Below, piece after piece: positions 5,300-57,667 of a DNA stretch of 64,000 nt. The notes beneath the pieces were generated by a model that worked only from the letters and a program-made list of their open reading frames with translations, had not been told where the DNA came from and made no database searches. The position numbers and the translations under genes were made by a program. Each line of letters begins with the position of its first letter. Within the stretch, counting starts at the first letter, position 1. Source of the stretch: a virus. The stretch covers positions 143,986 to 207,985 of the IMG/VR virus record IMGVR_UViG_3300044846_005229. One strand, written 5' to 3'.

Positions 5300-6240
5300 C
5301 ATGTTGACTCCTGGGGTGTGGTGGACAGTTTGTAAACTGTCTATTTGCGTTGGGGGTTTGACTTTAGGGGCTTGATTCCAGGGTGTATTTTAGGGGTTAA
5401 TGTATAATCCGGGGTGCGTTTTCCGGGTAATGTAGAATGCCTAATTTGAAAAGTCCGAAAGTCAACCGCTGAGATCGATTGCAGGGCAACGAGTTTACTC
5501 CTAAAATTTTTGAATTTTTTAGGACCTAGCGAAAAACCATCCAAAAAATTCTACATTTGAATGCATATTTTGCACCCTGGGGTCTTTATATACACTTTTT
5601 CGCGAATATATGTATAATAAGTGTTTACCTTATGTTGTTGGTGAGTTGAATAGTTGACGACTGGGTGTGATCTCGTCAGTCTCAGTTAAGTATCGGAATG
5701 AGTTCACATCGAGTAGTCTACAGTTGGCATCAGCCCCAACGGTCTCAGTTAAGTATCGGAATGAGACTCCACCAAATAGTAAACAACTGGGGTACGGTCT
5801 CAACAGTCTCGTTTCAGTCCCACAACAAGACTCATCCAAATAGTAAACAACTGGGGTACGGTCTCAACAGTCTCACTTCAATCTCACAATGAGATCACAC
5901 TTCAAGAGTAAGCAGATGGGTGCGTTTTTCCAGTAATGTAGAAACCCAGGGTGCATTTCCCAAGTAATGCAGAAACCCTAAAATCAAAAACCCGAAACTC
6001 AATCCCTGAGATCGACTGCAGCGGAACGGAGTTACTCCTAAAAAAATTAAAAATTTTAGGACCTTTTCAAAAACAGCATGAAAAATTCTACATTTGAATG
6101 CATATTTTGCACCCTACTACTATATACTCGCGTAAAAATTATTTATAGTACACTCTTATCTAAATATCCATAATCAATAAGTTATCCTTATCTATGTACC
6201 AACCAATGAGTAATAGCAGTAAGGCAACAAAAGAAAGGGG
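5300..6240 (+). repeat. composite repeat module copy B (IR element about 5385-5575; TATAAT about 5613-5618; 24-nt repeat array 5679-5893 with 2 perfect and 2 degenerate copies; IR element about 5915-6115)
   Basis: Paralogous to 1736..2720. The intervening segments are homologous between copies and one is internally duplicated. Confidence 0.85.
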
Positions 6241-6965: not shown

Positions 6966-7102
6966 TGGGGGTGGTCCGGTGGGTGACGGTAGGGGAATTA
7001 TAGCATAGGCCTGGCAGGTTAGTTGGTGGCCCCGTAATTATAGCACAGGGGGGTCAGGCTACGGGTGCCGTTACATTCCGTAACAACAGGTACGGCAAGG
7101 AG

Positions 7103-7216
7103 TCACTGGATGGCAACCCCTGTAAAGAATTGGCCAGGTTGTGGGGTTATGCTTTCGCTCCTGAAGGGTAGCCAGGCGAAGAAGGGCAGCCCTGCGGCTG
7201 ATAATCCTAATTCCAT
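7103..7216 (-). CDS. possible 37-aa hydrophobic peptide (MELGLSAAGLPFFAWLPF...)
   Basis: Small ORF found by manual rc translation, downstream of the TTGACA-17-TACAAT promoter at about 7262-7292. Not in the track (<60 aa). Confidence 0.25.
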   Translation of the reverse strand: MELGLSAAGLPFFAWLPFRSESITPQPGQFFTGVAIQ

Positions 7217-7460
7217 TTCCCACTATTTGCCTTCACGTCTACCTGTATTTTGGGTTGTTTAGCCATTGTAGCATGGGCCTGGCAGTGTCAACTCATGGCG
7301 TTAACTGAGTTTACTGCAACATGGTTGCCGTTGGTTGGTGGCGATTGGGTTTGAACCCATTGTTTGCGGGGGGCTGGTGGGCTGGTGATAGGGGAATTGT
7401 AGCATGGCCCGGCAGGTTGGATGGTTTACTTTGGTAGTATAATACGAACCCGATAGGCAG

Positions 7461-7826
7461 TCAATCCTTAGCGGTAATCTCAGCACCTTCCAGTAGTTTG
7501 GAAGCTAGGTCAGTATCACCCGCCTTAATTGCGTTTTGGATGCGTTCTTTCAAGGTTAGCTCGTATGACCATTTTCGGCCGTTGATGGTGCCCCTGACAT
7601 TGCCCCCGACAGAGCCCTCGACAGAGCCCCCGACAGAGCCCCCGACAGAGCCCCTGACATTGCCCCCGACAGAGCCCCTGACATTGCCCCCGACAGAGCC
7701 TAGGACATCACCCAAGACACCACCCCTGACATTGCCCCCGACAGAGCCCTCGACATCATTTACCCGCCATTCACCGCTGATTCTGGTGAAAGTAACTAGT
7801 TTTTTAATTTCTTCAATGCTTGGCAT
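7461..7826 (-). CDS. Gly/Val-rich octapeptide-repeat protein (GSVGGNVR x about 9), possibly a beta-helical or bactofilin-like fold
   Basis: ORF track; internal 24-nt periodicity visible in the DNA; promoter ggaattatagcatgg ... gtcaaccc at 7875-7915. Confidence 0.55.
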   Translation of the reverse strand: MPSIEEIKKLVTFTRISGEWRVNDVEGSVGGNVRGGVLGDVLGSVGGNVRGSVGGNVRGSVGGSVGGSVEGSVGGNVRGTINGRKWSYELTLKERIQNAIKAGDTDLASKLLEGAEITAKD

Positions 7827-8017
7827 TTCAATTTAGGGGTTTGATGATGTCATGGTGTGTCCGGTGGTTGGTGACAAAGGAATTATAGCATGGGTCCGGC
7901 AGACAGTCAACCCTTAGGGACCTGGGGCCACACCCCAAACAGCAAAAAAAAGGGGGGGGCCGATGCCAACGGCACCAACCCCCCCCCCAAGCAATCGGCC
8001 GATACCGACGGCTCCAA

Positions 8018-8275
8018 TCAGCTAGCCACTGCAAGCAGCCGATCAGCCACTGCACCCTTCGCAGTACGCTTCCCATCGAGATAATACAAGGTATAAACTC
8101 GCCCCGGCTTCACACTGGGGGTTACCGTAACGGTCAGGGCCTTGCCGTTGATGCGGATGGCAGTTTCGGCCTTTGCGCCGGATGCTGTAGCTTGTTGCAC
8201 GGTGTTGGCTTCAGTGGTATCAAGGCGGGCAAGCAGGGTGTCAAACTTACGGATGGTCAGAGGGGGAGTAGCCAT
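8018..8275 (-). CDS. hypothetical protein (85 aa), start moved to MATPPLTIRK
   Basis: Track ORF 8018..8323 begins inside the promoter (TTGACA-17-TATAAT at about 8325-8360 on the minus strand). Confidence 0.55.
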   Translation of the reverse strand: MATPPLTIRKFDTLLARLDTTEANTVQQATASGAKAETAIRINGKALTVTVTPSVKPGRVYTLYYLDGKRTAKGAVADRLLAVAS

Positions 8276-8440
8276 GGTTGTGGGTGGGTTGTGTTGTGGG
8301 GTGAATCCCCGGGACCTTGCCATTATAGCCCAGGTGAGAGACGGTTGTCAATGCTTGACTGGTGGCAAGATCCCCCGAGGGTCACCATATTATGGCATAT
8401 TGCCGGAGTTATTGCAACCTGCTGCGTTGGCGACCAGGGG

Positions 8441-8469
8441 TTGACAACCGCCGGAATCCACGCTATAAT
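8441..8469 (+). promoter_or_regulatory. perfect consensus plus-strand promoter TTGACA-17-TATAAT
   Basis: ttgacaaccgccggaatccacgctataat; it drives the conserved block listed next. Confidence 0.7.
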
Positions 8470-8475
8470 ATGCAC

Positions 8476-8545
8476 ATAACCAAACGAGGGGCGAGGTAGC
8501 CCTGAAGACGAAAAAGGTCGCCACGGAACCTGCTTGCTTATAGTT
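8476..8545 (+). ncRNA. candidate small RNA, copy 1 (conserved block GAGGGGCGAGGTAGCCCTGAAGACGAAAAAGGTCGCCACGG...)
   Basis: A near-identical about 50-nt block recurs at 10020-10075 behind a second consensus plus-strand promoter. No ORF. Followed by an A7G6 tract and a CCGGAGTCA short-repeat region. Confidence 0.45.
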
Positions 8546-8653
8546 ATTACCGGACAGTAAAAAAAGGGGGGTTGACCCTCGGGTTTTATCCCAGAGTCAT
8601 AGCCCCGGAGCCACAACCCCGGAGTCACAACCCCAGAGTCAAACCCCACGCAC

Positions 8654-9106
8654 TCAAGAATTACGGGCAATGACTTTTTTCAGGAAGTCCAAACCATCTT
8701 CATTGGTAACAAAGAAATGGGATCCAGCCTCATCACCTAGCAATAGTTGGCCAGCTGTAGAAGGCAATTTGGAGAATCCTACTTCCCCCGCCATCACTTG
8801 GGCGGTTCCCGCGATACAATGGACCGTACCACATTCGTTGAAGGCTTCTTTACCCGTAGTTTCTTTGCCAAGGTCGATACGAAACATTAAGGGACCCCAT
8901 GCCTGATGCCAATTAGCCATATCAAAGTTTTTCAAATCACGCTCTACAATCCAACGCGCCACATGGTGAAGGTTAGCCCTTTGTTGCTCGGGGGTGAGTT
9001 TGATGCTGAGGTTTTCAGGAATATGGGGCAACGGGGGAAGGCCGGGAGTAGTATCCAGCTTCTGGAGATTTAGGCGAGTAGCTTCAGTTAGGGAAAGGGT
9101 TTTCAT
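8654..9106 (-). CDS. hypothetical protein family X (150 aa; conserved NECGTVHCIAG motif), paralog of 45067..45525
   Basis: About 50% identity to ORF 45067..45570. Start moved to MKTLSLTEATRL, downstream of the promoter atcatagcac at about 9158-9167. Confidence 0.6.
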   Translation of the reverse strand: MKTLSLTEATRLNLQKLDTTPGLPPLPHIPENLSIKLTPEQQRANLHHVARWIVERDLKNFDMANWHQAWGPLMFRIDLGKETTGKEAFNECGTVHCIAGTAQVMAGEVGFSKLPSTAGQLLLGDEAGSHFFVTNEDGLDFLKKVIARNS

Positions 9107-9267
9107 GGTTTTGGAAGGGGGGGTTAGTTGCCTGGTTGGTTGGTTGGTTGACTCTGTAATCATAGCACAGGGCCAGGGGAAGGTCAACCCTTAGGGACCT
9201 AGGGCCACAACCCCGGAGTCAATACCCTGGAGTCATAGCCCCCAATCCCCAATCCCCAATCCCAAAG

Positions 9268-9741
9268 TCATGCCGCAGCAAACTGCTTATTCCGGGAATA
9301 GAAACGCTCACAGCCATACTTGACCGCAATTTCATCCAAACTACCCGGATTGGAGCGGCTCCGGCCCAGCCCTGCAGGCTTCCAGAACCAGCATTTCCGG
9401 CCACTATGCCAGCGGCACCCCAGAGCCTTAAGGTCTTCCTTAACGGGCTTGGTATCACCCGTGACCCATACCCATAGGCCAATCAGGCTGATATCAAGGT
9501 TGGGAATCTTAAGCAATTCCGCAATCTGATCCATGATGGCCTGCTCGGTTTTTTCCGTATAGCGGTAGGTCCGGCCATCGTCCTCTTGACCGTTGCAGGC
9601 TGCCAGGGCCTCGTGGTAGGCGGCATTAAGGGCCTTCATGGTTTCCAGATCGCCACCAAGATCAGGGTGGTGCTTGCGAGCCAGATCACGGTAAGCGCTT
9701 TTGACTTGCTCAACAGTGGTGAGGCCAGTGAAGAATGTCAT
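9268..9741 (-). CDS. J-domain (DnaJ-like) protein
   Basis: YRDLARKHHPDLGGDLETMKALNAAYHEAL carries the HPD motif. Start moved to MTFFTGL after the promoter at about 9770-9812. Confidence 0.65.
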   Translation of the reverse strand: MTFFTGLTTVEQVKSAYRDLARKHHPDLGGDLETMKALNAAYHEALAACNGQEDDGRTYRYTEKTEQAIMDQIAELLKIPNLDISLIGLWVWVTGDTKPVKEDLKALGCRWHSGRKCWFWKPAGLGRSRSNPGSLDEIAVKYGCERFYSRNKQFAAA

Positions 9742-9868
9742 TGCCGGTTCCAGGTGGTGGGTGACTTTGGTAGTGTAGCATGGTTGCCGGTGGGTCGTCA
9801 ACCCCCCCCCTTTTTTAGGGGAAGGTTAAAACCGCTACCTGCTGACCCATGAATTATAGCATGTCCGA

Positions 9869-9975
9869 GGGCCAACTGTGGATGGCCGGAAGTTAGTGCC
9901 CATAGGCTGACAGCGGGTTCGGGGGGCCAACTGTGGATGGCCGGGAGTTAATGCTCATGGGCCGACACATTGCCG
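9869..9975 (+). repeat. two direct copies of an about 45-bp element GGGCCAACTGTGGATGGCCGG(A/G)AGTTA.TGC.CAT.GGC.GACA
   Basis: Seen directly; contains the near-palindrome GGCCA-N9-TGGCC. Lies between a minus-strand promoter (gaattatagcatg, about 9851) and the plus-strand sRNA promoter. Confidence 0.6.
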
Positions 9976-9981
9976 AAGGGG

Positions 9982-10011
9982 TTGACAAGACTAGGGTAGT
10001 CGCCCTATAAT
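9982..10011 (+). promoter_or_regulatory. second consensus plus-strand promoter TTGACA-18-TATAAT
   Basis: gttgacaagactagggtagtcgccctataat. Confidence 0.7.
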
Positions 10012-10019
10012 AAGCAAAC

Positions 10020-10080
10020 AATCAGAGAAGGGGCGGGGTAGCCCTGAAGACGAAAAATGTCGCCACGGCCCCTACTTGCA
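10020..10080 (+). ncRNA. candidate small RNA, copy 2 (AAGGGGCGGGGTAGCCCTGAAGACGAAAAATGTCGCCACGGCCCCT...)
   Basis: Paralog of 8485-8540; contains a potential AGGGGC...GCCCCT closing stem. Confidence 0.45.
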
Positions 10081-10084
10081 ATTA

Positions 10085-10440
10085 AAGAGTTTATGCCATT
10101 GAGTTTATGCCATGGTGCATTTTGCGAGTAATGTAGAAGTCTAGGGTGTGTTTTCGGAGTTAATGTAGAATGCCAAGGGTGCTTTTTCTGGGTAATGTGG
10201 AAACCCCCAAATTGAAAATCGAAAATTCATTCCCTGAGATCCGTTGCAGGGCAACGGAGTTACTCCTAAAATTTTTGAATTTTTTAGGACCTAATGAAAA
10301 AACGATCCAAAAGTTCCACATTTGAATGCAAATTCTGCACCCTACTATCATATATTCGCGAAAAGTATATTTAATAGAAGACTCTTATGTATAGTTCCAT
10401 AACCAATAAGAAATCCTTATCACTGCACCCTCCATTCAAA
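10085..10440 (+). repeat. composite repeat module copy C (partial: one IR element with three GTGC.TTTT..G.GTAATGT.GAA direct repeats, hairpins GGAGTTACTCC and CCTAAAA...TTTTAGG)
   Basis: Homologous to the IR elements of modules A and B; lacks the internal promoter and array. Confidence 0.8.
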
Positions 10441-10441
10441 G

Positions 10442-10663
10442 TCAATCCACAGCCAACTCAAAGTCAACCTCAAAGGGGCCATCCCAATCCTGAGCCCATT
10501 GGGGGGCGCCCATGAAGCGAAGATCGTCCGACTGATGAGAGAATGGTTCAGGAACCGTGTCAACTACACAGACCCAAGTTGGAAGATTCTCCCGACGCAC
10601 GGGGTGGGCAGTGTCCCCGATCCATTCTTGAGCCAGGAAGGTGCAGCGTAGGGTGTGTGCCAT
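10442..10663 (-). CDS. hypothetical protein (73 aa)
   Basis: ORF track; promoter-like tagtttagcatgg ... gtcaaccccc at 10690-10740. Confidence 0.45.
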   Translation of the reverse strand: MAHTLRCTFLAQEWIGDTAHPVRRENLPTWVCVVDTVPEPFSHQSDDLRFMGAPQWAQDWDGPFEVDFELAVD

Positions 10664-10815
10664 TGTGAGGTCGGTGGGTTTCGGTTGGTATGGGCCTAGT
10701 TTAGCATGGTTGCCGTGGGAGCGTCAACCCCCTAGCTTCAAGGATTGGCAAGCATGGGGCCGGGAGTGCGTCAACCTATCGGCAACAACTCCACGGCCCC
10801 CAGCCCTGACAGCAA

Positions 10816-11199
10816 TCAGCGCCGGTACAAATATCCCCCAGCCCAATCAGCCCGCTGATAGCAACTCTCAGGGTCCTCCAACAAATTGTAACGAATTCCT
10901 TTGGCAGGAGACTTCCAATTGGCTGCCTTGTAAACGTCCCCGGTTACCCGATCGATGAAAGCATGAATAGAACGATTGCCGGACGTTGACATTATGATTT
11001 TCAGATACTTGCGCCCTTCCTCCACTGAGAATATCGGGGCATAACCCTTGCCAACCCCATCAGGATTAAACCGCGCCGAGCTATCAGCCAGAACCGCGCA
11101 TAGCTTGAGGGTGGCGGTGAGAACCGGGCTAGGTGCCTTAGGGGTGGTAACCTCAGGGGCGGTAGCTTCGGGATTCGTGGCCAGTTCGGTAGCAATCAT
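10816..11199 (-). CDS. hypothetical protein (127 aa), start moved to MIATELATNPEA
   Basis: ORF track 10816..11298; N-terminal 33 aa judged non-coding (GC-rich, no promoter spacing). Confidence 0.45.
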   Translation of the reverse strand: MIATELATNPEATAPEVTTPKAPSPVLTATLKLCAVLADSSARFNPDGVGKGYAPIFSVEEGRKYLKIIMSTSGNRSIHAFIDRVTGDVYKAANWKSPAKGIRYNLLEDPESCYQRADWAGGYLYRR

Positions 11200-11459
11200 G
11201 GCGGGTCGGGAACGGCGGTGTTTGGTTCCTTGCCATTTTACACCATTGGAACCCGGATCGTCAAGGGGCCACCAGGGGAATTGCCGAGGTATTGTCAAGG
11301 CATCGTCAAGGGGCCATCAGGGTCCGCTAAGGAAGCCATGCGACCAAAAAACACACAAAGTCAAGGGACCCCACCGAGCCGAGGCTCAGAAACCCAGTCA
11401 CTGTCAGGGATTTTCCCTTACTGTGGTTGTCTTCATTTGAGAATGCCCTAGGTGGGTGT

Positions 11460-11720
11460 TCCTAATTGTTGTTACCAAAGTTTCAAACCTGAAAAATTGA
11501 AAAATTTGAATTTATTATATTTTTCTATTATACCAACACACTATAATGTCATAATGCCATAACAGTATAACACTATCGTTATATGAGCATAAAGTCATTT
11601 TGATCTTGGGGGGCACCTTGACACTACATATCATGGCACCGTCTCACAGTAACTTCATTGCGCTAACACTATGCCATCATAACACTATCGTTATACGATT
11701 ATAGAGTCATTAACCCTGGG
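11460..11720. other. AT-rich non-coding region with direct repeats (ATAACACTATCGTTATA(T/C)GA x2, CATAA(C/T) runs); candidate origin or regulatory region
   Basis: Sharp GC drop; no ORFs; repeats seen directly. Confidence 0.4.
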
Positions 11721-11807
11721 GACTAAAGCGTGTCTGGGGGGCATAGGAGTAATGTGGCGCGGTAAGTTGCCAGTGGGCGATGATTATGGTATAGGCAGAC
11801 CCGGCAA

Positions 11808-12116
11808 TCAGGCGGATACCTCTTGTTTGGTTAGCCAGGCTTCTACGGCAGCCAGCGCCGACGGGGGGACCATGCGATGGCCGACGGGCTGCCATGAGTG
11901 ACTGGCCCATCCGCCGGCAGGCTGCTCATGCCATTCAGTCAACCTGCGGAACATATAGAAAACCGCTGTTTCATTAAGCGACAGTAAATCAGGAAAATAC
12001 TGATACTCTACCCGAAAAAGGAGATACCAAGAAAAAGCGTTTCTGGGCCAGGCTTGGACGGTCAAGCCGCTGGCGGGGTCAGTGTAGACGGTTGTAACGG
12101 CAAGGGTGTTGGTCAT
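11808..12116 (-). CDS. hypothetical protein (102 aa)
   Basis: ORF track only. Confidence 0.4.
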   Translation of the reverse strand: MTNTLAVTTVYTDPASGLTVQAWPRNAFSWYLLFRVEYQYFPDLLSLNETAVFYMFRRLTEWHEQPAGGWASHSWQPVGHRMVPPSALAAVEAWLTKQEVSA

Positions 12117-23142: not shown

Positions 23143-24570
23143 TTACCCCGAAACCCTGACATCCCTAATCTCTATACCCTCAGCTTCCAGCAACTCCCGG
23201 AGCCTATCTGCCTCCTTAAAATCACGGTTAGCCCTTGCGATATTACGTTTTTCAATTAGTGCTTGAATACCATCGCTTTTTGGTTTTTGAGGTGCGGGAA
23301 CCTCATGAACTAATCCTAAAATTCCGGCCAATTCACATAAGAGCCTCCAACGATTTAGAATTTCCCTATTTTCATCGCCCGCTGATACGATGGGGCGAGC
23401 CAAATAGAACAATTCCCCGATGGCTACAGACGTATTAAGATCATCATTGAGTGCCGAAATGAAACGATCTTGACTATTTTTTAAGTCTGTAGTTAAAATC
23501 AAGGGTTCATTCGTTTGCTGACTATCGCCATGTTGACTAATTCCATGCCGACTAACATCATGCTGACTAGCCCCATGCCAACTATCACCATGCCAACCAA
23601 ACCCCAATGCAGCATTTAATACTTTCCAACCATTGATCGCGGGCACCATTGCTTCCGAATTAAAATCTATCGGCTTTCTATAGTGGGCTTGTAATACGAA
23701 TAATCTAATGGTCATAGGGCTAATTCCTGATCCAATTAGGTCTCTGATGGTTGTGAAATTCCCTAAGGATTTAGCCATTTTCTCTTCCCCAACCGTGACA
23801 AACCCATTATGAAGCCAATACCTGGCTAGTTCAGCCCCATTGGCGGCCTCCGACTGGGCTATCTCGTTTTCGTGGTGAGGAAAGATCAGGTCGGCTCCGC
23901 CCAAATGAATGTCAATCGTGTCGCCCAACTCCCCGCGCACCATAGCCGAACATTCAATGTGCCAGCCGGGACGGCCCCACCCCCATGGTGACGGGTACCC
24001 ATGGTCAATAGGCATTGCCCCTTTCCAAAGAGCAAAATCAAAAGGGTGGCCCTTCTTTGAGTCGCTATTAACCTGTTGTTGGCCAAGGTTGCGACCACTT
24101 AGTTTCCCGTACCCCTTAAACCCCACAACCGAGAAGTACATATCACCACCCATAGAATAAGCAAACCCTTTATCAGCAAGGTCTTGAATCATGGTGCGGA
24201 TTGCATCAAGACTACGGGTAACCCTTGGCATTTTGTCGGCAGGCAGGATGTTCAATGTGCCCATGTCTTCCTCAAAGGCCTTAATATTGCGCTCACTGAC
24301 GGCCCCGATTGTTACTCCTTCGGAGTTGGCTTTGGCTAGAATTTTATCGTCGATATCCGTATAATTTTGAACAAACGTAACCTCATACCCATGCCACATA
24401 AAATTACGCCTTAAGACATCCCACACGATATAACTACGGGCGTGCCCTAAGTGGCATAGATCATAAACGGTAACACCGCAACAATACATCGACACTTTGC
24501 CTGGAACCAGCGGGATAAACTTCTCTTTGGTTTTAGTTAGGGTGTTGGTTAGGGTAATGTCGTTAATCAT
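23143..24570 (-). CDS. cysS: cysteinyl-tRNA synthetase (class I; HIGH = CHLGHARSY, KMSKS = KMAKSLGN) with a low-complexity insertion WHGDSWHGASQHDVSRHGISQHGDSQQ
   Basis: Full-length alignment-level similarity to CysRS (zinc ligands and anticodon-binding region present). The insertion is encoded by about 15-nt tandem DNA repeats (catgYYgactaRYM) at about 23520-23600. Confidence 0.9.
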   Translation of the reverse strand: MINDITLTNTLTKTKEKFIPLVPGKVSMYCCGVTVYDLCHLGHARSYIVWDVLRRNFMWHGYEVTFVQNYTDIDDKILAKANSEGVTIGAVSERNIKAFEEDMGTLNILPADKMPRVTRSLDAIRTMIQDLADKGFAYSMGGDMYFSVVGFKGYGKLSGRNLGQQQVNSDSKKGHPFDFALWKGAMPIDHGYPSPWGWGRPGWHIECSAMVRGELGDTIDIHLGGADLIFPHHENEIAQSEAANGAELARYWLHNGFVTVGEEKMAKSLGNFTTIRDLIGSGISPMTIRLFVLQAHYRKPIDFNSEAMVPAINGWKVLNAALGFGWHGDSWHGASQHDVSRHGISQHGDSQQTNEPLILTTDLKNSQDRFISALNDDLNTSVAIGELFYLARPIVSAGDENREILNRWRLLCELAGILGLVHEVPAPQKPKSDGIQALIEKRNIARANRDFKEADRLRELLEAEGIEIRDVRVSG

Positions 24571-49867: not shown

Positions 49868-49980
49868 ATGGGACCAGTAGGATTTGAACCTACACCTCTC
49901 CTTTAACGTAGGAATTTAATTGCTGATGTATCTTTGACAAGATAACTTTCTTTAGCGCTCTGTCGTTGAGCTATGGTCCC
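49868..49980 (-). tRNA. tRNA-like gene with canonical acceptor, D and T arms and a candidate anticodon arm (TTCCT-ACGTTAA-AGGAG, GUU?), interrupted by an about 41-nt insertion between the D and anticodon arms
   Basis: GGGACCA-TA-GCTC-AACGACA-GAGC-G-[CTAAAGAAAGTTATCTTGTCAAAGATACATCAGCAATTAAA]-TTCCTACGTTAAAGGAG-AGGT-GTAGGTTCAAATCCTAC-TGGTCCC-A. The insertion contains its own hairpin TATCTT-GTCA-AAGATA. Confidence 0.5.
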
Positions 49981-50456: not shown

Positions 50457-51929
50457 TCAGTATATACCGCGTCCCGCATCAGGGACAATGGGGGTAATTG
50501 CATTGCCGGTAAGAACTGCGGTCAGGATTGACGGAGAGCAACCGCTAACGAGAGCGGTACCGGAATCATGGACCTTCATCGGGACGTTATCTGAGGAATT
50601 GACATTCCAGAAGATGACATCAGGCAAGCTATAACCAGCTTGGGCATACTTGATTCGAATTGCTTCGTAGTTAGTGACTTTTTTTCCGCTATACCCCCAA
50701 CCAGAACCAGTGCCACCCATGACAACACAGTCATCAAACTGCATGTCTGAGACAATAATCAGTTTGCGGGGCATGTCTGACTCTGGAATGTTGTTCCGAA
50801 CTGCAGTATCCAGAATAAGGTCAAACGTCTTTTGGATGTCAGTGTTACCACCCCAATCTGCTCGGCTCAGGTTTCTAACCTTGCTGGAGAGACTATTGCC
50901 AGTCACAGTTTGTAGGGAGGGGTTACCCGAAAATGTTAGAAACTTGTTTTTCCAGATGCCAGTATTACGCTCTGCGATATACATCGCCAGAGAGATGGAT
51001 ACTGCCATCGGACGACCCTCCATGGAACCGCTAACATCGGCAACAACAAGCCCATTCAATTCCTTGCCTTCCATGTAGTTGGGTAGAGCCTGCCAGAGGA
51101 GTTCAAGAGTATCGTTTGATTCGTTGTTATAGAGACACTTCTCAACGATGTCATACGGGTACAAAGTACCGGCATTGATTTTTGCCTCGCCTTTCTTGAC
51201 TGCATCGAGGTAAGACTGGTAGCGAGCACCATCATGGTTAGCAAAAGCTTTCCGATACATGAAGCCTGCACGAGAAGGCAACTTGCTATACTCAATGGCG
51301 TCCCACTCACGGGCACACATTGGTTGTTCTACGATATTGATTTGGGTGCGAAGCGCAGTCAGGGCCTTGCGGTATTGACGCTCATTCCAACCCATTGCCT
51401 TAGCGATAAGACGGCCAACCCGCTTGGATTCCTTGCTAGAAGCGTTAATGGAAGGTAGCCATTTTGCTAGTAGTGACACTGGGTTTCCAACTTCGGTGTT
51501 CAGGTCAGTATTAAGCTGCGTCTTAATTGCTTCTAGGGCGATGACCCAAACTAGCGTCCCTTCGAGGGCCACAACATCGTCCCAGCGACCGTACTGCGGG
51601 ATCAGGCCTACCAGCTTAGCTCCAATGGTCGCATCATTGCGAACCAGCTCCTTGAAGACTTCCCGGAAGATTTTTCGTTCTCCTTGCCCAATCCCCCTAA
51701 TATCACGTGCCCAAAACAGGATCCGGGTCGCAGTTTCAGGATCTTCGGCATAGGCTGACTTAAAGAGTTTAATGGCTGCATCAACATTATCACGGCAAGC
51801 TGCGATTTTACCGAAAAGGTCTAGGTTCTTTTGGCCCGTGGACCTATAGGCCTTTGCGCCGTTTGCAGTTGTGGTGATATTGGAGTTGGTATCCAGTTGG
51901 TTCTCAAGTGCATTCAAAAAGGTTGTCAT
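50457..51929 (-). CDS. vWA-domain protein with a large N-terminal helical (TROVE/DUF2828-like) domain; Ro60/Rsr-like architecture
   Basis: MIDAS motif VVADVSGSMEG plus downstream vWA strands; N-terminal about 330-aa helical region. Start moved to MTTFLNALEN. Confidence 0.65.
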   Translation of the reverse strand: MTTFLNALENQLDTNSNITTTANGAKAYRSTGQKNLDLFGKIAACRDNVDAAIKLFKSAYAEDPETATRILFWARDIRGIGQGERKIFREVFKELVRNDATIGAKLVGLIPQYGRWDDVVALEGTLVWVIALEAIKTQLNTDLNTEVGNPVSLLAKWLPSINASSKESKRVGRLIAKAMGWNERQYRKALTALRTQINIVEQPMCAREWDAIEYSKLPSRAGFMYRKAFANHDGARYQSYLDAVKKGEAKINAGTLYPYDIVEKCLYNNESNDTLELLWQALPNYMEGKELNGLVVADVSGSMEGRPMAVSISLAMYIAERNTGIWKNKFLTFSGNPSLQTVTGNSLSSKVRNLSRADWGGNTDIQKTFDLILDTAVRNNIPESDMPRKLIIVSDMQFDDCVVMGGTGSGWGYSGKKVTNYEAIRIKYAQAGYSLPDVIFWNVNSSDNVPMKVHDSGTALVSGCSPSILTAVLTGNAITPIVPDAGRGIY

Positions 51930-52079
51930 TTTTCTTCTCTCAAGTTGATTGTTTTGTGTTTGTGTTTCGGATACAAATAATAGCTGTATCAACTTTGCCC
52001 CTAGGAGTTAATTTTAGGGGTGGTGGTGGGGGGCACTGACGGCCCCGATATTGGGCAGTTTGTAACTTAGCTGGGTCAA

Positions 52080-56575: not shown

Positions 56576-57667
56576 TCAGCCACTCTTCTTCCCCTTAGAT
56601 AGCAACCACTCATTACTAATGGCCTTAAAGGAAAACTCAGAGTCATTGGACTTGAATACTAAGCCCTCACGTTTAACGTTAGGATTCATGGACGGGCCAT
56701 CGGCGTACGCTAGTAGCTCATCTAGGTTGGCGAAACTATCGGTTACACACATTGCGGGGTGTAGGACAGGGGCATGGGTTAAATCAGCGCCTAATGGAAC
56801 CAGGTACTTGTCCAAGAGGTTCATTCTGGCCCCTGGCTTCATGTAGGTCTGGTTGTCGATATCGAAGATGTCGAACAGATATAGCCGTTGTCCCTTGATT
56901 CCTTCCTGATTGCCCTGGATGCCTTCTCCAAGGGTTTCCGACTGCAAGGCAATACTGTGACCAGTCTTCCCATTGTATGCAAGCATAGCATCGATAATGC
57001 CCTGGTCCCTAGCAGCCTTCCAGAAACTATTGCCTTCGGTTTCCTTGAGATCAAGGTTACGGCTGCAAACCCCAATGTCACCGTCTTTGACGTAAATCGT
57101 ACATGAAGATCCGTCGAGCTTCAGGGTAACTTCGTAGGTCTCATTCCTGTGGGTCTCAAAGATTTCGCTAGCGATATTCTGACAACGTTCCTGGTCTGTC
57201 TTCACAAGGAAGCTCGGGAAGTTGCCTTTTGCAATGCCAGCCAAACAAGCCGGTACAGGAGCCTCCCATTTCTGAATGCCGAGAATTTCGGTTACGTCGT
57301 CTCCTTCCTGAAGGCCCCTCTCAAATGCGGTGACATAGTAACTGAAGTCTACATAGAGCTTTAGAGAAATAGGCAACAGCAACCCTTGGCTGAGTTGCCC
57401 ACGGAGCTTAACGGTCTTGAGACGTTCGCCCTTCACGCCGTTATACTCACGGGGCTCTTTCCCATTAGAAAGGAAGGGCGCCAACTCGTGAGGAATAAAT
57501 GAGTCGGGTTCTGCGTAAATTACCAAATCCCCTACTTCATACTTCCCCACAGAATCCACAACCCACCAGCCATTCACACGGTAGGCACAGATTCTATCGG
57601 CTTCAGGGATGGGGCGAATCTCAGCAATGCGCTGGACAGATGCAAGTTTGCGTTCGATGTTTGCCAT
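56576..57667 (-). CDS. ATP-dependent RNA (or DNA) ligase-family protein, nucleotidyltransferase motif I KLDGSS, with an N-terminal OB-like extension
   Basis: KxDG adenylyltransferase motif in VTLKLDGSSCTIYVK. N-terminal IAEIRPIPEADRI...VNGWWVV...KYEVGDLVIYAEPDSFIP resembles Rnl-family ligases with an N-terminal domain (pattern-level). Confidence 0.65.
   Translation of the reverse strand: MANIERKLASVQRIAEIRPIPEADRICAYRVNGWWVVDSVGKYEVGDLVIYAEPDSFIPHELAPFLSNGKEPREYNGVKGERLKTVKLRGQLSQGLLLPISLKLYVDFSYYVTAFERGLQEGDDVTEILGIQKWEAPVPACLAGIAKGNFPSFLVKTDQERCQNIASEIFETHRNETYEVTLKLDGSSCTIYVKDGDIGVCSRNLDLKETEGNSFWKAARDQGIIDAMLAYNGKTGHSIALQSETLGEGIQGNQEGIKGQRLYLFDIFDIDNQTYMKPGARMNLLDKYLVPLGADLTHAPVLHPAMCVTDSFANLDELLAYADGPSMNPNVKREGLVFKSNDSEFSFKAISNEWLLSKGKKSG

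Follow-up and report, generated by a model that had tools for sequence, protein, structure and literature searches.

A covariation-supported hairpin and codon-like micro-frame, duplicated in a phage genome and common to a family of phage loci

We analysed a 64,000-nucleotide (nt) stretch of viral DNA (positions 143,986 to 207,985 of IMG/VR record IMGVR_UViG_3300044846_005229), here called the window, in which two short plus-strand loci stand behind perfect consensus promoters. Each locus combines a small RNA hairpin, which we call hairpin A, with a micro-frame of 13 codons that lacks a canonical start. Comparison with relatives shows that the two copies belong to a covariation-supported, widespread phage RNA/micro-open reading frame (micro-ORF) family that is absent from Rfam and from the searchable literature, and which is unusual in that its conserved segment evolves like coding sequence while canonical start codons are largely missing. 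Our tentative preference, which may well prove wrong, is that each copy would be a self-contained early micro-peptide gene, possibly with a dual function, of a large cyanophage family.

Promoters, the duplicated block and its family

The elements of the two copies, numbered from the first letter of the window, are as follows.

8441-8469, plus strand: copy 1 promoter, TTGACA at 8441-8446, 17-nt spacer, TATAAT at 8464-8469; 12/12 match
9982-10011, plus strand: copy 2 promoter, TTGACA at 9982-9987, 18-nt spacer, TATAAT at 10006-10011; 12/12 match
8488-8503, plus strand: copy 1 hairpin A, GGGGC, loop GAGGUA, GCCCU
10030-10045, plus strand: copy 2 hairpin A, GGGGC, loop GGGGUA, GCCCU
8502-8543, plus strand: copy 1 micro-frame, CTG AAG ACG AAA AAG GTC GCC ACG GAA CCT GCT TGC TTA TAG, translated (L/M)KTKKVATEPACL*
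10044-10085, plus strand: copy 2 micro-frame, CTG AAG ACG AAA AAT GTC GCC ACG GCC CCT ACT TGC AAT TAA, translated (L/M)KTKNVATAPTCN*

A sequence-only reading of this DNA had picked out the two promoters as perfect and as the only strong ones on the plus strand, and our scan agreed: apart from these two, no plus-strand site in the whole window reaches at least 11/12, while 16 such sites lie on the minus strand, which alone carries every non-shadow ORF of at least 100 amino acids (aa). Within positions 1-48000 the minus strand holds 16 near-consensus (at least 11/12) sigma-70 promoters, 5 of them perfect, and many of these precede single small genes. The conserved block said to follow both promoters was also recovered, with 84% identity over 75 nt (8463-8537 vs 10005-10079) from the -10 box through CTTGC. 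Its flanks are unrelated. A 32-nt core containing one N occurs exactly twice in the window vs 0.00 occurrences expected from shuffles.

The arrangement of promoter and RNA is constant. In all variants aligned or inspected, the distance from a -10-type hexamer (TATAAT, TATACT, TATGAT, TATCTT, TAGGAT and others of the form TAnnnT) to the first G of GGGG is exactly 18 nt, and this constancy implies that transcription starts about 12 nt 5' of the hairpin; the predicted starts are about 8476 for copy 1 and about 10018 for copy 2. With -35 and -10 boxes, a spacer within the 16-18 nt range and a constant distance to the RNA, the locus has the layout of a putative independent transcription unit of the sigma-70 type. 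In every conserved context the hairpin/micro-frame gene and the protein genes on either side of it occupy opposite strands.

The family comprises at least 148 phage or metagenome loci with about 109 distinct variants. A 21-mer core was present in 9 IMG/VR contigs and a 20-mer in 31 metagenome contigs, three of which (L013, L017 and L020) are chance matches in coding DNA; the degenerate pattern GGGG-N3-GGTA-N-CCCT-N10-22-TCGCCAC matched at least 119 IMG/VR stretches, and an nhmmer profile recovered additional diverged copies in loci already collected. Duplication, which the sequence-only reading had emphasized, recurs in the family: 38 of the 148 loci hold 2-4 copies, adjacent ones 0.1-5.3 kb apart and mostly on the same strand, and the 1542 nt that separate the window copies are typical. 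Clusters of three to four diverged copies within about 2 kb, one copy being inverted, were seen in L057 (6046-8224), L132 (11489-13666) and L105 (1222-2446); their stems are fully compensated (GGUG/CACC, GAGG/CCUC), and residue 2 of the conserved peptide is changed from A to D.

Two genomic backgrounds carry the gene. One consists of relatives of the window phage (L003/L037, L024/L040 and L039), which are syntenic and have the same consensus promoters; the beta clamp and the DUF7717 protein of the window phage find their closest matches in Synechococcus phages. The other consists of contigs of T4-like cyanomyoviruses (Kyanoviridae-like) with Kyano_Gp96 and DUF6267 neighbours, whose Gp96 protein matches 396 Synechococcus/Prochlorococcus phage records. 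These two neighbours were the commonest, and no partner protein was universal among the genes flanking the family. A search by synteny in cultured marine cyanomyoviruses (QB2, S-RIM8) found the Gp96 gene without the RNA.

Database searches placed the family outside known collections. Rfam 15 at the gathering threshold returned three tRNA matches only for the whole window, and at E <= 10 it gave no match on the RNA itself in 7800-10800, 8470-8600, L018:2160-2330 or L092:6005-6140; neither copy corresponds to an Rfam family, Downstream-peptide/glnA, Yfr1/Yfr2, tmRNA, hammerhead and twister among them. The family was absent from GenBank phages, as both a distant-mode blastn search against 50,697 phage records and a megablast search with 7000-12000 came back empty. 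Against 185,579 species-representative genomes, the exact 20-mer core and its complement gave one chance match, in a spirochaete assembly, and no cyanobacterial one. Three motif strings of at least 16 nt were not found in the searchable literature, which does not cover the supplements of the 10,000-viral-motif paper, and the generic 10-mer GGTATCCCTG gave literature matches only in unrelated papers.

Hairpin A and the micro-frame

Hairpin A has the general form G-G-G-G-N / R-R-G-G-U-A / N'-C-C-C-U, that is, five base pairs under the hexaloop RRGGUA. In an alignment of 65 diverse homologues (A1), 99.7% of the cells were paired and compensatory double changes affected four of the five pairs, with 44 such cells; none of 500 shuffles equalled this result, and slid controls all scored far lower. 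The closing pair was C-G in 32 sequences, A-U in 22, U-A in 6 and U-G in 4, and at the inner pairs G-C was swapped to C-G, A-U and U-A. RNAalifold predicted hairpin A as the sole helix. Single-sequence folding z-scores were unremarkable (+0.26 to -1.1). On evidence that is comparative and not thermodynamic, hairpin A is a genuine RNA structure kept by compensatory change. The earlier description of a short structured non-coding RNA thus stands as far as the hairpin is concerned; the word "non-coding" is doubtful, since the 3' half evolves in a codon-like manner.

The copy 1 loop contains GAGGU, a perfect Shine-Dalgarno (SD) core, and the loops GAGGUA and GGGGUA are, we infer, complementary to the anti-Shine-Dalgarno sequence CCUCC. 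An A-rich linker of 9-14 nt (G-NN-GAYGAMAA...) follows on the 3' side. Several further structures were tried and rejected. A long-range helix GGCGR/UCGYC around the core fitted the first 22 variants, but the change of C5 to A or U covaries with G12 and leaves the supposed partner G33 unchanged. A local hairpin GACGA/UCGYC is broken in the 36-nt class and in GACGC variants, and a pseudoknot between loop GGUA and a downstream U(G/A)CC showed no covariation where the loop reads GGUC or GGCA. A hammerhead or K-turn reading of CUGAAGA...CGAAA has the wrong order, no stem II and no Rfam match. For a tRNA-like or D-arm reading, acceptor pairing is impossible and ARAGORN was negative.

Downstream of the hairpin, both window copies have a 13-codon open frame that begins at an in-frame CTG, 5 nt after loop GGU, and contains no ATG, GTG or TTG. 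The statement in the sequence-only reading that the block has no ORF therefore holds for those three starts and fails for CTG. Across the family the frame segment reads RUC GCC ACN nnn CCN GCN (AUA/UUG/AUG) AAA UAA, so that the last eight codons specify [V/I]-A-T-x-P-A-[I/L/M]-K-stop. Residue counts over the 109 variants are [I 69 / V 38]-A 97-T 109-x-P 91-A 98-[I 39 / L 33 / M 7]-K 81-stop 76, the stop falling at the same codon in 76 of the 109. Substitutions within the frame are conservative: V/I, A/V, P/A, A/T, I/L/M (all with middle U) and K/N/R.

The pattern of nucleotide change points the same way. Along a minimum spanning tree of the 109 variants, changes at codon positions 1, 2 and 3 numbered 49, 48 and 83, and the synonymous fraction was 0.34 in the proposed frame vs 0.22 and 0.23 in the other two (Fisher p = 0.008). 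Among the first 21 variants, the third position of codons 5-13 had roughly double the entropy of positions 1 and 2. Change in the frame is thus codon-periodic and biased toward synonymous substitution, with a conserved stop, the signal being weaker in the 38-nt class. Where an ATG occurs in the 20 nt upstream, it is in frame in 38 cases and in the other two frames in 4 and 1, lying at codon -2, -4 or -5; in such variants the start follows loop GGU by 8 nt. TAG stands at codon 2 in four variants, and in three of these codon 3 is ATG. On our reading, the frame segment would be decoded, or at least engaged by ribosomes.

The micro-frames of the window type, unlike the others, hold a Cys codon (…ACL*, …TCN*). 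The window also encodes a full-length cysteinyl-tRNA synthetase at 23143-24570 on the minus strand (tRNA-synt_1e E = 1.7e-119, plus DALR and CysS_C domains).

Surroundings of the two copies in the window

Three further features adjoin the copies, with no strand assigned to any of them.

8559-8590: 3' element of copy 1, an A7 run, hairpin GGGGGGTTGACCCTC and a GGGTTTT tail, from a terminator scan of both strands
9864-9912 and 9919-9967: direct repeats, 2 x 49 nt at 55-nt spacing, upstream of promoter 2
10087-10440: non-coding region 3' of copy 2, 14-nt repeats at 10087-10113, 32-nt repeats at 10107-10202 and A/T-rich blocks

The A7G6 tract noted earlier after copy 1 forms one arm of a hairpin, and the scan rated this hairpin terminator-like in both orientations (8566-8580 on the plus strand, 8580-8564 on the minus strand). 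The 8559-8590 hairpin probably ends the copy 1 RNA, which would then be about 115 nt long, as well as the minus-strand gene 8654-9106 that converges on it. Across the family the frame is followed by an A/T-rich stretch; next comes a T-tailed hairpin in 49 of the 109 variants, and in 38 of those 49 an A run precedes the hairpin, making it bidirectional. Copy 2 and its orthologues, unlike copy 1 with its terminator-like hairpin, read into a region of the 10087-10440 type.

The direct repeat reported beside copy 2 is present, with units of 49 nt in place of the 2x45 bp first described. Each unit of 9864-9967 contains a palindrome GGCCA-N8-TGGCC, and analogous GTGCCA-N10-TGGCAC palindromes lie upstream of the RNA genes in T4-like contigs (L010, L011 and L092); these palindromes are candidate operator sites for some regulator. 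The region of about 350 nt at 10087-10440 is conserved in L003, L037, L039 and L040 with differing repeat numbers and is not found in T4-like contexts. It may be a replication origin or a protein-binding control region, outside the RNA family and specific to window-type phages. A candidate conserved RNA hairpin downstream of copy 2 (CCGTTGC/GCAACGG) was discarded, as it is broken in L039 and L040 without compensation.

A functional tie between the RNA and the neighbouring repeat modules, proposed in the sequence-only reading, is not supported: T4-like cyanophage contigs carry the same gene and have none of those repeats. What had been listed as a 24-nt array (7589-7756) proved to be a coding repeat (GSVGGNVR-type units) inside the minus-strand gene 7461-7826, whose protein has 121 aa in the window vs 271 aa in L003 (579-1394, minus strand). 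A 31-32-nt repeat (…TTTTCGGAGTAATGTAGAA…) forms arrays in three stretches, 10087-10440, 2373-2454 and 5918-5978, and in the first the arrays are accompanied by 14-nt GAGTTTATGCCATT repeats and A/T-rich blocks. Several spacers between genes contain 14-nt repeats (CCCGGAGTCACAAC, 8590-8647 and 9190-9276) and hairpin terminators of G8/C9 (7950-7988).

The single copy seen in L024/L040 has a promoter and leader like those of copy 1 and a downstream region like that of copy 2, which suggests recombination between two copies. The duplication may flank an insertion made up of the two genes between the window copies (8654-9741).

Far from the two copies, the minus strand at 49869-49980 encodes a tRNA-like RNA with acceptor, D and T arms, in which a 54-nt insert replaces the anticodon arm; it scored 47.8 bits with the Rfam tRNA model, drew no ARAGORN call and had a fold z-score of -3.8. 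This RNA lies just downstream of a 511-aa DUF2828/DUF7788 protein (50457-51992, minus strand; PHROG 850, "RNA-binding protein"), and an RNA ligase (56576-57667, minus strand) is encoded at a distance of about 6.6 kb. Together the three could form a Ro/Y-RNA-like or RNA-repair module.

Explanations, known systems and implications

If the copies are micro-peptide genes, host RNA polymerase would, early in infection, produce large amounts of a transcript of about 100-115 nt, a 30S subunit would dock on the SD-like hairpin loop, and translation would yield a peptide of 8-13 residues, starting in the window copies at the CTG at the foot of the hairpin and in relatives at an in-frame ATG located one to four codons beyond that point. 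It is the peptide, perhaps together with the ribosome-bound RNA itself, that would then act on some host target. Several observations weigh against this view. Neither window copy has a canonical start (ATG, GTG or TTG) with an SD sequence at 5-10 nt, and the 109 variants include 31 with ATG, 2 with GTG or TTG, 20 with CTG only (both window copies among them), 52 with AUC or AUA only and 4 with none of these. The linker varies between 9 and 14 nt by steps that are not multiples of 3, so the register is not kept. L123 and L048 have an in-frame TGA three codons before the conserved frame and no start in between. In the 38-nt class, TAT replaces the stop in about half of the variants and the frame statistics are weak, and the family-wide frame statistics account for kinship through the minimum spanning tree only. 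Finally, the window-type subgroup is invariant at the nucleotide level from the hairpin through codon 4, with zero synonymous change, which implies that this part is constrained at the RNA level as well.

It is possible, if doubtful, that the gene is purely an RNA-level effector, in which the SD-like loop and A-rich linker would bind the 30S subunit, S1 or another protein as a sponge, a decoy or a hairpin of the translational-operator type, and the codon-like conservation would reflect ribosome or protein contacts and not a functional peptide. The hairpin and its loop are indeed the most conserved part and the sole structurally supported one, about 70% of variants lack ATG, GTG and TTG, the nucleotide invariance runs through the first codons, and classes offset by +1 or -1 nt retain the same downstream nucleotides. 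The third-position and synonymous excess and the 38:5 bias toward in-frame ATG are, however, hard to explain without decoding, and the same applies to the middle-U I/L/M pattern and the conserved stop position. No conserved single-stranded seed was recognised either, the most exposed segment, after CAC, being hypervariable (GGGG, CCCC, GAAC).

We consider it unlikely that the promoters serve cis-acting transcription into the minus-strand genes (copy 1) or into 10087-10440 (copy 2), either for antisense or collision control or for activation or priming of an origin, with the block as a promoter-proximal element positioned like put or nut sites. The gene always runs opposite to its neighbours, copy 2 and its homologues in L003, L037, L039 and L040 run into a conserved non-coding region with iteron-like repeats, and on the RNA strand a clear T-tailed terminator is missing from about half of the family. 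Yet copy 1 and the genes of T4-like contigs end at a terminator-like hairpin within about 100 nt, downstream content is not conserved across the family, and the origin-like region is limited to window-type phages. The put sites of phage HK022, putL and putR, have two stem-loops and act in cis on long downstream operons. The window resembles this system in having two homologous RNA elements directly behind two strong, putatively early promoters of one phage, and differs from it in having one covarying helix only, no co-oriented genes downstream and a terminator-like hairpin after copy 1.

We give next to no credence to a tag template like that of transfer-messenger RNA (tmRNA), in which ribosomes would enter the start-less frame with no initiation step and host trans-translation would be hijacked; RUC would then serve as the -1 triplet and GCC as the resume codon. 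Picocyanobacteria, the likely hosts, have a two-piece tmRNA. The family resembles the mRNA-like domain of tmRNA in its start-less frame (canonical starts are missing from most variants, and a stop lies immediately 5' of the frame in some), in the purine at -3 and the C at -1 before GCC (Ala), and in the hairpin and A-rich spacer upstream (PMC2481249). The A at -4 of the resume codon (A86), though, is nearly invariant in tmRNA and is its most conserved determinant of frame choice, accompanied by a purine at -3 and C or U at -1 (PMC2481249), whereas the family has G, C or U at -4 (AGGUC, CCAUC, ACAUC). ARAGORN found tRNAs only and no tmRNA, Rfam gave no match at E = 10, the 3' hairpin loops are not T-loops, GGGGN pairs in cis within hairpin A and not as an acceptor strand, and the tags would end in K or N and not in a hydrophobic ...AA. 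The missing tRNA-like domain and the missing A86 equivalent largely refute the tmRNA-like model.

The proposal in the sequence-only reading that the locus encodes an anti-defence or antisense regulatory RNA, here tied to the neighbouring repeat arrays, found no support in our analysis and strikes us as very improbable. The gene is small, strongly promoted and placed among early genes, as such a regulator might be. The family is nevertheless independent of the repeats, its exact core 20-mer and the complement occur in no cyanobacterial species-representative genome, and it bears no likeness to CRISPR repeats or to any Rfam family. No conserved unpaired seed was recognised in it, it has no conserved structure outside the hairpin, and its folding z-scores are unremarkable.

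In the way it would work, the unit is most like a dual-function small RNA (sRNA), a minigene or an operator hairpin containing a ribosome-binding site, and it is a member of none of these groups. Dual-function sRNAs that also encode a small peptide include SgrS/SgrT, RNAIII/delta-haemolysin and SR1/SR1P. Like them, the unit has its own promoter, a transcript predicted here at about 100 nt, a structured part combined with a very short ORF, and a sequence constrained as RNA and as codons alike; unlike them, it has a frame of 8-13 codons, mostly without a canonical start, and neither homology nor an Rfam match links it to them. The bar minigenes of phage lambda are ORFs of AUG and one or two codons. 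They share with the family a phage mini-ORF, presumably strongly expressed here, behind an SD-like element, and many family members end AUA AAA UAA in an A-rich context. A bar-type unit, however, consists of an SD sequence, AUG, 1-5 sense codons and a stop, whereas the family frame runs to 8-13 codons and AUG is missing from both window copies and most relatives; the conserved peptide pattern, moreover, argues for a product, in contrast to the mere peptidyl-tRNA drop-off of the bar type.

Translational operator hairpins with a ribosome-binding site are known from the replicase operator of MS2 and Q-beta and from the gene 43 operator of T4. The likeness lies in a short hairpin whose stem is kept by covariation and whose invariant loop carries or abuts the SD sequence and start codon; the difference is that the loop sequence is unrelated and that the family unit stands alone and is not the leader of a long ORF. 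The Downstream-peptide/glutamine-II riboswitch motif of picocyanobacteria and marine metagenomes likewise places a conserved RNA structure directly 5' of a very short ORF. It is a two-stem pseudoknotted aptamer, in contrast to the single 5-bp hairpin found here, which gave no Rfam match at E = 10 in short windows.

A bolder variant of decoding seems improbable to us. In it, the eight codons would be a template decoded without a canonical start after unusual ribosome entry via the SD-loop hairpin, and, as a second speculative strand, the product would mimic the tail of the D1 protein. Cyanophage D1 proteins end in ...AAESTPVALTAPAIG (S-RIM2) and ...TPVALTAPSIG (Sf-CH3), as read from psbA 3' ends of cultured Synechococcus phages (L157 241-318 and L156 241-318). 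The D1 precursor end ...PVALTAPAIG* resembles VATAPAIK* and IATPPAIK* with one residue deleted, both directly before the stop, in a post hoc comparison that concerns a low-complexity A/P/T motif and two checked sequences. The likeness is a lead only and may be a coincidence. If it were real, the peptide could mimic the D1 tail that the CtpA protease removes, and the phage would, speculatively, tamper with photosystem II maturation.

Should the micro-peptide reading hold, two or more unrelated genome types of freshwater cyanophages would have in common a strongly expressed early micro-gene that is invisible to annotation pipelines, and its high conservation across otherwise unrelated phages would imply interaction with a conserved host component. 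It would then offer a compact test case for initiation from an SD sequence displayed in a hairpin loop with non-AUG starts, and for host takeover in picocyanobacteria by a micro-peptide or by direction of ribosomes. Even if the gene acts through its RNA only, it would represent a new covariation-supported phage RNA family and a candidate for Rfam.

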